DNA of 35,056 nt from Escherichia phage vB_EcoM-720R4, in sequence record ON470603.1, one strand, 5' to 3'. How positions within the stretch are numbered: the stretch's first letter is position 1; each line of letters starts with the position of its first letter. The position numbers and the translations under genes are program-made. Below are positions 1 through 1,683 of the stretch, one piece after another. Below the pieces are notes generated by a model. The model searched no databases, was not told where the DNA came from, and saw only the letters and a list, made by a program, of their open reading frames with translations.

Positions 1-603
1 ATGGATAATGCCGTATTAAATAGTGAACTTATTGCCACGAAGGCGGGGGATATTACTGTCTATAATTATAATGGTGAAACACGAGAATATATTTCCACAT
101 CAACTGAATATCTTGCTGTTGGTGTCGGTATTCCGGCATGTTCCTGTTTAGATGCACCAGGAACATATAAAGCTGGTTATGCCATCTGCCGCTCTGCGGA
201 TTTAAACTCATGGGAATATGTGCCAGACCATCGCGGAGAAGTCGTCTATAACACCGAAACGGGAGACGCCAAAGAAATCACAACTCCGGGTGATTACCCC
301 GAAAATACAACCACTATCGCCCCATTAACGCCATACGATAAATGGGATGGTGAGAAATGGGTGACCGATACTGAGGCACAGCATCACGCCGCAGTAAACG
401 CGGCAGAAGCACAGCGTCAGTCACTGATTGATACTGCAATGGCTTCCATTAGTCTGATTCAACTGAAATTACAGGCTGGGCGGAAGCTGATGCAGGCAGA
501 GACCTCCCGACTTAACACTGTGCTGGATTACATTGACGCGGTGACGGCAACAGATACCAGCACCGCGCCGGATGTCATCTGGCCTGAACTGCCGGAGGAG
601 TAG
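1..603 (+). CDS. tail fiber assembly protein (Tfa family), plus-strand copy convergent with the minus-strand tfa
   Basis: 200-aa ORF with Tfa-like N-terminus (AGDITVYNY, EYLAVGVGIPA) and C-terminal APDVIWPELP motif; its 3' end overlaps the opposite-strand tfa at 575-603. Confidence 0.7.
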   Translation: MDNAVLNSELIATKAGDITVYNYNGETREYISTSTEYLAVGVGIPACSCLDAPGTYKAGYAICRSADLNSWEYVPDHRGEVVYNTETGDAKEITTPGDYPENTTTIAPLTPYDKWDGEKWVTDTEAQHHAAVNAAEAQRQSLIDTAMASISLIQLKLQAGRKLMQAETSRLNTVLDYIDAVTATDTSTAPDVIWPELPEE

Positions 604-1015
604 GCCATTCAATATCTGGCGCACTGGAAGTATCGACCAGCTCCAGTGCGTCCAGATAATCCAGCCACAAATTATATTGCGCCAGTTCCTCACCTTTCAG
701 ACGACCAATAGCCGCTTTACCAGCCCATTGTTTACTGTTCATATAATCGTTGGCCTGATTAATCAATTGCTGCTTTTTCAGTTCGGCTGCAGCAATCTGT
801 TCCTCATGTGTTGGTGGTGGAATTTCAGACCATGCAGGAAAACCATTTTCTCCAGCGATACGGATTTTTCCTTTCGGCGGTAATCCGGAAAACTCAATAT
901 ACACTTGCTCATCAACTTCAACAGCATCATCTGGCCATGAGTCAGCTTGCGTGTAATCCTCTTTCATCTCCAAGGGATAGAAAGAGTTTGTAGTCGCGGA
1001 ATATATGTAATTCAT
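575..1015 (-). CDS. tail fiber assembly protein (Tfa family)
   Basis: 146-aa ORF directly downstream of the fiber gene; C-terminal SAPDIEWPTPP motif typical of Tfa chaperones. Confidence 0.7.
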   Translation of the reverse strand: MNYIYSATTNSFYPLEMKEDYTQADSWPDDAVEVDEQVYIEFSGLPPKGKIRIAGENGFPAWSEIPPPTHEEQIAAAELKKQQLINQANDYMNSKQWAGKAAIGRLKGEELAQYNLWLDYLDALELVDTSSAPDIEWPTPPAVQAR

Positions 1016-1041
1016 TTTTCACTCCATAAAGTTAAAAGAAA

Positions 1042-1683
1042 TTAACACCCTAATGCGAAAAATGAAGCACCGATACCGGGTACGCCTGCTCTGGAAATAA
1101 ATTTCACCGGGTCCTGGTTATAACCGGCACAAGCTATATAGCCAACATTTGCACTGCCGGGAGTGTAATCCTGAGTCGCAAATACCCGCAGACATCTATT
1201 CGGAAATGCAATCGGAAAATAGGTTACTGTGTCCTGAGACGTCAGCGAAACATCAATTGGCCCCCATTGAATAATTAAACCGGATGGCAATTTTTGATAT
1301 CCAGGAACTGAAGCAGAAAGCATAAAACTACCCATATCAGGTATCTGATTCGCCCCTGTCCCTACATTTCTTTTAGCCGCTTCTCCCAAACCAAGGTTTT
1401 CGAGAGCCGTTTGCACAGTGCCATCCGATTTGATATCGCCAAACGGATTCTTGCGGCTTAACAGCAGCGCACGAAGTGCGGTAAGCAGCTGGTCATGCTG
1501 CCCTTTCTCCAGGCTGGCACCGGAGGCCTCCACCACGCCACAAAGTTCTTCCTGCAACATGTCAAAGTAGTCATCATCCAGATCGGTGGCAGGTGTGCCG
1601 GTCTGGGGGTTACCACGGGTAAAACCGTTCTTACCCGCGCCGAACTTATCCTTCTGCGCGGTTTTCGTGTCTATACGATGCAT
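1042..1683 (-). CDS. side tail fiber protein (short, StfP-like)
   Basis: 213-aa ORF located between the YmfQ-like gene and tfa; Gly/Thr-rich N-terminal region; assigned by position in the Mu/e14-like tail module. Confidence 0.55.

Follow-up and report, generated by a model that had tools for sequence, protein, structure and literature searches.

The window analysed here, the whole stretch of 35,056 nucleotides from Escherichia phage vB_EcoM-720R4 (ON470603.1), opens with two tail fibre assembly genes that face each other and overlap at their 3' ends, next to a short fibre gene and two genes of the tail operon. The features at this edge are listed below with their coordinates, strand and basis.

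1-603, plus strand: tfaE-like tail fibre assembly chaperone, 200 aa (ORF listing; Pfam PF02413 Caudo_TAP, E 8e-31)
1-1393, no strand: part of the ~1900-bp invertible segment that lies in the window, 73% of it (comparison of contigs L012 and L008)
575-603, no strand: 29-bp overlap of the 3' ends of the convergent tfa genes, stop codons included (ORF coordinates)
575-1015, minus strand: second tail fibre assembly chaperone, 146 aa, in the position of TfaP in e14 (ORF listing; Pfam PF02413 Caudo_TAP, E 2e-38)
1042-1683, minus strand: fibre gene, 213 aa (ORF listing; Pfam PF21882 Gp53-like_C, E 2e-18)
1042-1380, minus strand: variable C-terminal fibre exon, aa 102-213, inside the invertible segment and fused here to the constant part (PF21882 on aa 131-213; alignment diverges after aa 101)
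1381-1406, plus strand: 26-bp crossover site of the Pin/Gin type, TTCTCCCAAACC-AA-GGTTTTCGAGAG (sequence read; equal to the stfP-side site of K-12 e14)
1407-1683, minus strand: constant N-terminal fibre part, outside the invertible segment and common to both fibre forms (aa 1-101 identical to the 265-aa fibre of contig L008; nearly identical in K-12 StfP)
1687-2271, minus strand: Mu gp48/YmfQ-like gene of the tail operon (Pfam PF10076, E 3e-26; RefSeq names in relatives)
2262-3320, minus strand: Baseplate_J/JayE-like gene of the tail operon (Pfam PF04865, E 6e-53; RefSeq names in relatives)

The sequence-only reading of this edge had described two Tfa-family genes in convergent arrangement, overlapping at their 3' ends and located downstream of a short fibre gene. 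The ORF coordinates and the Caudo_TAP matches found in both products agree with this description, and the gene that precedes the pair codes for a Gp53-like_C product of only 213 aa. The two chaperones share 38% identity over 72 aa and are distant paralogues. The 200-aa product is 88% identical to TfaE of E. coli K-12, and the 146-aa product is 61% identical to the 137-aa TfaP of the same strain, a similarity limited to the C-terminal 102 aa. Since the 146-aa Tfa is co-oriented with the tail operon, it would be the "on" chaperone in the orientation found in the window. After the Baseplate_J gene come genes of the Mu-type gp46 and gp45 families (Pfam).

The window as a whole corresponds to an apparently complete prophage of E. 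coli, a temperate myovirus of the SfV-like type. Its structural genes include a Mu-like baseplate, tape measure, tube and sheath together with a capsid, protease and portal of the HK97 type. In addition, it contains a terminase with an HNH endonuclease, a lysis set (holin, endolysin and spanin), antiterminator Q, two DNA methylases, RusA, replication genes and a CI-like repressor. A tRNA scan of the window found no tRNA gene.

A crossover site within the fibre gene

The 26-bp site at 1381-1406 is part of the coding sequence of the fibre, in which it encodes residues A93 to E101 (ALENLGLGE), and its central dinucleotide AA (1393-1394) falls in codon 97. The core AAACC-NN-GGTTT has a single match across the 35-kb window, compared with 0.04 expected by chance, and the same core is present in both gix sites of the Mu genome (TTCCTGTAAACCGAGGTTTTGGATAA and its inverted partner). 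Furthermore, the P segment of e14 in E. coli K-12 has exactly the same 26 letters at its fibre-side site. The repeat CCTTCTCCCAAACCAA described for that segment by Kirigo et al. (2025, PMC12529663) is contained in the window site with one mismatch, located at the first base of the repeat and just outside the 26-mer. Contig comparisons place the breakpoint of a natural inversion at window positions 1380-1399.

Scanning the 35 kb for the core and for the site gave no second crossover site within the window, and the inverted repeats in positions 1-2400 were only short pairs at the level expected by chance. The window by itself cannot show the repeat pair because the partner site lies outside it. 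The earlier proposal of two inverted 26-bp sites, one of them in the 5' part of the fibre gene, was correct in that both sites were found, and has to be amended regarding the position, the fibre site being located about halfway along the gene, at codons 93-101 out of 213.

The remainder of the segment in public contigs

The exact 213-aa fibre was looked up in public assemblies and was found in 10 contigs, with two types of neighbourhood. Contig L012 (GCA_022110055.1) is 100% identical to positions 1-7000 of the window and L013 is 99.99% identical, base 1 of the window being position 7683 of L012. Beyond the window edge, both carry a fibre exon with a Collar domain and a gene for a 185-aa protein of the resolvase family, so that the partner exon and the serine invertase are located to the left of the window, where the sequence-only reading had expected them. 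In L012 the first feature beyond the edge is a promoterless fibre ORF with a Collar domain (167-182 aa), its stop codon sharing bases with the start codon (ATG) of the 200-aa tfa. The partner of the fibre-gene site, TTCTCCCAAACC-AA-CGTTTAAGAAAA, is found at L012 8178-8203, inverted and on the other strand, 494-519 bp to the left of the window (written in full, to the left of base 1, it is TTCTCCCAAACCAACGTTTAAGAAAA on the reverse strand); the fibre-gene site is at 6278-6303 in the same coordinates. The 185-aa gene is divergent and lies 55 bp past the partner site, and the order after it is DUF4145, dinI, integrase and dusA. The L012 prophage, of ~39 kb and apparently complete, is integrated next to this last gene. 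The nearest complete genomes, with ~98% identity over window 1-2300, have the same layout with annotated tfaE and pinE.

The two cassettes are located tail to tail, each consisting of a tip followed by its own Tfa (Gp53-like_C and the 146-aa protein on the minus strand, Collar and the 200-aa protein on the plus strand). The 200-aa Tfa is the cognate chaperone of the silent Collar-domain exon and is in the "off" orientation in the window. Given that the window contains one site, ~73% of the segment and neither the second exon nor the invertase, it is the identical or nearly identical public contigs that show the complete system. The remaining ~506 bp of the segment, the partner site and the invertase gene are all to the left of base 1, and the left edge of the window cuts through a functional unit. 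An assembly break produced by mixed orientation was considered as the cause of this edge and rejected: the edge coincides with the start codon of the tfa gene, 494 bp away from the partner site, and is not located at a repeat.

The 185-aa protein has the catalytic serine at position 9 (MLIGYVRVS9TNDQ), is 84% identical to K-12 PinE and matches over aa 1-181 the Gin structures 3UJ3 (E 1e-91) and 4M6F (E 3e-90). The L012 gene codes for an intact serine invertase of the Gin family. Its first 120 nt are 89% identical to K-12 pinE and 78% to Mu gin, and a degenerate and crude scan of the invertase 5' region for Fis sites did not give a site pair consistent across the three genes.

The plus-strand tfa could also be read as a dead leftover of a former segment, with no partner exon, site or invertase surviving and no switching. 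The window, which has no invertase and no second site, would fit this view, and such cases do exist. In phage SfIV, which still has stf and tfa, an IS truncates the convergent tfa and there is no invertase after it, and in contig L004 an IS adjoins the 200-aa tfa. For the phage studied here we consider a remnant extremely improbable. The Collar exon and the 185-aa invertase were present in 10 out of 10 contigs with the exact fibre, the one with 100% identity to 7 kb of the window among them, and the ORFs of the two tfa genes and the two fibre tips are all intact. Actually, the isolated tfa remnant that had been named beforehand as an argument against an invertible segment is seen in a relative, SfIV, and not in the contigs that match the window exactly.

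Inversion of the segment and the proposed switch

Both orientations of the segment, also anticipated from the sequence alone, exist in nature, as found by comparison between isolates. Contig L008 (GCA_949281505.1) has the same prophage adjoining dusA with the segment in the opposite orientation to that of L012. The flanks of both are collinear and 100% (5507 bp) and 99.4% (4466 bp) identical, the invertases are 100% identical and the stretch of 1912 bp from one site to the other is inverted, with 99.9% identity. The junction preserves the reading frame: in L008 the constant part is joined in frame to the Collar tip, giving an intact fibre ORF of 265 aa. This fibre and the 213-aa one of the window are the same through aa 101 and unrelated beyond. 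Since the two prophages share invertase and flanks but differ in orientation, the inversion must be very recent in this lineage.

The distribution of the two states was also assessed in 5426 complete E. coli genomes by means of 400-bp probes across the junction, a genome being counted at a coverage of at least 80%. The window-state junction was present in 385 of them and the flipped-state junction in 512. Furthermore, the near-clonal strains LS4 and NQ3 (chromosomes of 5,196,956 and 5,196,957 bp, with identical accessions for the flanking proteins) carry the same cassette, 98.8% identical to the window-type one, in a P2-like prophage and in opposite orientations. Experiments on the homologous e14 segment, which has the repeats CCTTCTCCCAAACCAA, showed its inversion by PinE and also by PinQ acting in trans (Kirigo et al. 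2025, PMC12529663), and both orientations coexist as phase variation in MG1655-derived cultures (Goldberg et al. 2014, PMC4272514).

These comparisons bear on the possibility of a switch that is complete but frozen, with all its parts present and the orientation fixed, for example by a defective enhancer or a silent invertase. The failure to find a consistent pair of Fis sites in the enhancer scan is in line with it. Nevertheless, a frozen switch is very unlikely when L008 has the opposite orientation with the same invertase, letter by letter, and near-identical flanks, and when the homologous segment of K-12 can also be flipped in trans by PinQ (PMC12529663).

What was observed here comprises the genes, both sites, a junction that keeps the reading frame, the invertase of identical contigs and natural isolates in both orientations. 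Positions 1-1683 of the window very probably represent the greater part, on the fibre side, of an invertible host-range switch of the Pin/Gin type in an SfV-like prophage, homologous to the P segment of e14. The type of segment is the one put forward in the sequence-only reading, for which we now have the site, its partner, the invertase and the two orientations. Leaving aside the Fis-dependent enhancer, for which the scan gave no consistent pair of sites, the locus has every feature by which a fibre switch of the Din family is recognised from sequence.

In the switch that we propose, the minus-strand tail operon would read into the fibre gene, of which the first ~97-101 codons are fixed, and the site at 1381-1406 separates them from a segment of ~1.9 kb with two opposed cassettes. 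Cassette 1 comprises the Gp53-like_C tip and then the 146-aa chaperone, and cassette 2 the Collar tip and then the 200-aa chaperone. In the orientation of the window the first would be expressed, as the 213-aa fibre and the 146-aa Tfa, and the second, reversed and cut off from the operon, would be silent. The small serine invertase would recombine the fibre-gene site with its inverted partner ~0.5 kb to the left of the window, putting the constant part in frame with the Collar tip to give the 265-aa fibre and placing the 200-aa Tfa in the operon. With only two sites, no more than two states are expected; a multiple-inversion system (Min-like) was rejected for the same reason. We infer transcription from the upstream tail operon from the gene order, because the scans for promoters and terminators, run on window 1-2400 and on the L012 invertase region, gave counts that were not above those of shuffled sequence. 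By analogy with Mu G, P1 C and e14 P, this particular invertase would catalyse the inversion, probably in dependence on Fis and an enhancer, and the two fibre tips may well differ in receptor specificity. If they do, a single lysate would contain particles of two host ranges.

A different main role, in defence of the host, has been suggested by recent work on the homologous e14 P segment, in which StfE2 is proposed to act against phage T2 (Kirigo et al. 2025, PMC12529663). Inversion would then serve to make a chimeric, invertase-proximal fibre fragment that blocks the adsorption of other phages, and ORFs in this position (129-130 aa, leader plus Gp53-like_C tip) are indeed called in flipped loci. 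As the main role of the present segment this is unlikely, though less so than a remnant or a frozen switch. The segment belongs to an apparently complete prophage with head and tail genes ~97% identical to those of SfI, SfII, SfIV and SfV, and the presence of one chaperone per tip in operon position is the classic design of host-range switches. The L012 scan gave no promoter above chance for the invertase-proximal ORF. Furthermore, the Gp53-like_C tip of the window differs from the K-12 StfP tip, and for this reason the T2 effect is not simply transferable.

Related segments and possible exchange of the cassette

The closest well-known counterpart is e14, a defective lambdoid element located in icd with lit, mcrA and pinE. 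The likeness to its gene order had already been noted from the sequence, and the annotation of e14 confirms it: the order jayE, ymfQ, stfP, tfaP, tfaE is the same (followed in e14 by stfE and pinE), with an identical fibre-side site in addition to the similarity of PinE and TfaE given above. The sites on the invertase side have a single difference in 26 positions. The 29-bp overlap between tfaP and tfaE is also the same (positions 5518-5546 of the e14 locus), and the DNA is 95.8% identical over window 1380-3049 (constant fibre part, ymfQ and jayE region) and 90.3% over window 1-679. With gene order, overlap and DNA identity shared in this way, the tfa arrangement is real and not a chance pattern of ORFs, and the likeness to e14 is one of homology, not analogy. 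The orientation of the window is that of the K-12 reference. However, the expressed half of the cassette is another allele: the fibre tip departs from StfP after aa 101 and megablast of window ~680-1380 against e14 gave no match. In addition, e14 is a defective remnant of 15 kb at icd, whereas the prophage described here is apparently complete, SfV-like, of ~39 kb and located at dusA, and no mcrA follows the invertase in L012. The element is thus distinct from e14, to which it is related and with which it has the P-segment module in common.

The Mu G segment follows the same design, with a constant fibre N-terminus, a site, two opposed cassettes of tip plus chaperone and an invertase, and in both cases the fibre is preceded by Mu-type baseplate genes (gp44-gp48). 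It is larger in Mu (~3 kb, compared with 1.9 kb here), the fibres are of ~500 aa instead of 213 and 265 aa, and the central dinucleotide of gix is GA/TC instead of AA. Mu is moreover a transposable phage, whereas the rest of the phage is here lambdoid with an HK97-like head. The C segment of P1 with Cin and the Min system of p15B involve the same invertase family, and in them the C-termini of the fibres are swapped together with the chaperones. Min of p15B has six sites and many exons, compared with only two sites here.

The serotype-converting Shigella phages SfV, SfI, SfII and SfIV have head and tail genes with ~97% identity over 45-70% of window 1-25000, and the same constant fibre part. 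They differ in carrying gtr O-antigen genes and no working invertible segment. The matches to SfI, SfII and SfV end near window position 1333, close to the crossover site.

Invertible fibre cassettes have been described in P2-like prophages of E. coli (Goldberg et al. 2014, PMC4272514). The 1.9-kb cassette of the SfV-like backbone (L012) was itself found, with 99.9% identity, in the P2-like backbones of contigs L003 and L009, behind a P2 H-like fibre gene and with an invertase after it. In these prophages the constant fibre part is unrelated to that of L012 (P2 H type, with products of 466 or 518 aa) and the adjacent invertase gene is only ~80% identical in DNA. The identity between L012 and the P2-like contigs ends inside the 26-bp sites on both sides. 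In L006, with the backbone and cassette of L012, the outer half-site differs and the invertase beyond it is largely unrelated, with a match of only 72% over 185 bp. In contig L010, which has a third site, the cassette lies between two invertase fragments, and the arrangement looks like a by-product of events between elements.

A tentative explanation, which we put at somewhat below even chances, is that the segment may behave as a mobile cassette, passed from one prophage to another, unrelated one when the invertase recombines the cassette's own crossover sites. The alternative is ordinary recombination, either illegitimate or through short homology, with selection sorting the products at a junction that tolerates fusions. 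That inversion sites serve as breakpoints of fibre mosaics had probably been suggested already in the older literature on P1 and p15B. Our literature search on the exchange of cassettes at crossover sites, which did not reach this older literature, returned nothing specific.

For annotation, the value of the comparison is that the 213-aa fibre is one of the two forms that the prophage can make, and that the plus-strand tfa is a functional part of the switch and not an antisense artefact. The system belongs to an already known type, the host-range switch of the e14 P segment, and is a textbook case of bet-hedging in the host range of a phage, so that it is not new here. The sharp boundaries of cassette identity at the crossover sites across unrelated phage backbones give a lead, of modest interest, to the way in which receptor-binding modules may spread.

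Left edge and other genes of the window

Base 1 of the window is the exact ATG of the 200-aa tfa, a TfaE-like chaperone gene. In L012 (GCA_022110055.1), a public contig carrying parts of the prophage to the left of this edge, the silent Collar exon, an alternative fibre tip, has a stop codon that shares bases with this same ATG. The cut leaves out ~0.5 kb of invertible DNA and ~3.6 kb of the prophage, and with them the genes for the invertase, DUF4145 and dinI as well as the integrase adjoining dusA.

The sole Rfam match above the gathering score in the window was to the STnc100 sRNA family (49.1 bits, with a gathering score of 47), found 3' of the CI-like repressor gene and overlapping the start of a 226-aa ORF (30848-31528) that had no Pfam match. 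The prophage also has two DNA methyltransferase genes at separate places, one adjoining the lysis genes and the other within the replication region.

21108-22160, minus strand, N6_N4_Mtase-type methyltransferase gene
26068-26754, minus strand, Dam-like methyltransferase gene
30808-31030, plus strand, STnc100 match (Rfam, 49.1 bits)

Truncated, decayed and apparently rearranged relatives of the switch

ON470584.1 1-2309 (L014; also L015), record of Escherichia phage vB_EcoM-689R6
NC_022749.1 17011-19735 (L018), phage SfIV, decayed switch
L004 4382-5590, decayed switch
L010 4860-9147, P2-like prophage, cassette with flanking invertase fragments

ON470584.1 is labelled "partial genome" and contains the host genes mnmA and hflD. 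The fibre gene there is only 171 aa long, cut short a little past the crossover site, and has mcrA and an invertase gene as neighbours, so that this entry appears to represent a prophage region at the e14 site and not a packaged genome. In SfIV an IS truncates the convergent tfa and no invertase follows tfa, while in L004 the 200-aa tfa is abutted by an IS4-type transposase gene, with pieces of the fibre constant part close by; both are decayed versions of the invertible switch. At L010 the cassette has invertase gene fragments on either side, one frameshifted and the other truncated to 110 aa, and a 421-aa fibre gene contains a third crossover site, at 8086. This arrangement looks like the product of recombination between two such cassette loci.

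Cassette matches on plasmids and in unrelated prophages

The full cassette (L012 6291-8190) was searched against ecoli_genomes, counting whole and partial matches, and 226 of the 4254 places matching it or its parts were plasmid-borne. Among them, plasmids of 66-216 kb matched with 88% coverage and ~89% identity, and these may be phage-plasmids having their own invertible fibre regions.

Window 1-1393, in-window part of the 1.9-kb invertible cassette
L012 6285-8196, the cassette; also in L003, L009 (P2-like backbones) and L006 (L012-type backbone)

Between SfV-like and P2-like prophages the cassette is 99.9% identical, whereas the adjoining invertase genes are only ~72-80% identical between loci. 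Because the identity stops, left and right, inside the 26-bp crossover sites and the invertase genes differ this much, the comparison suggests that the cassette has been exchanged between prophages at its own recombination sites.
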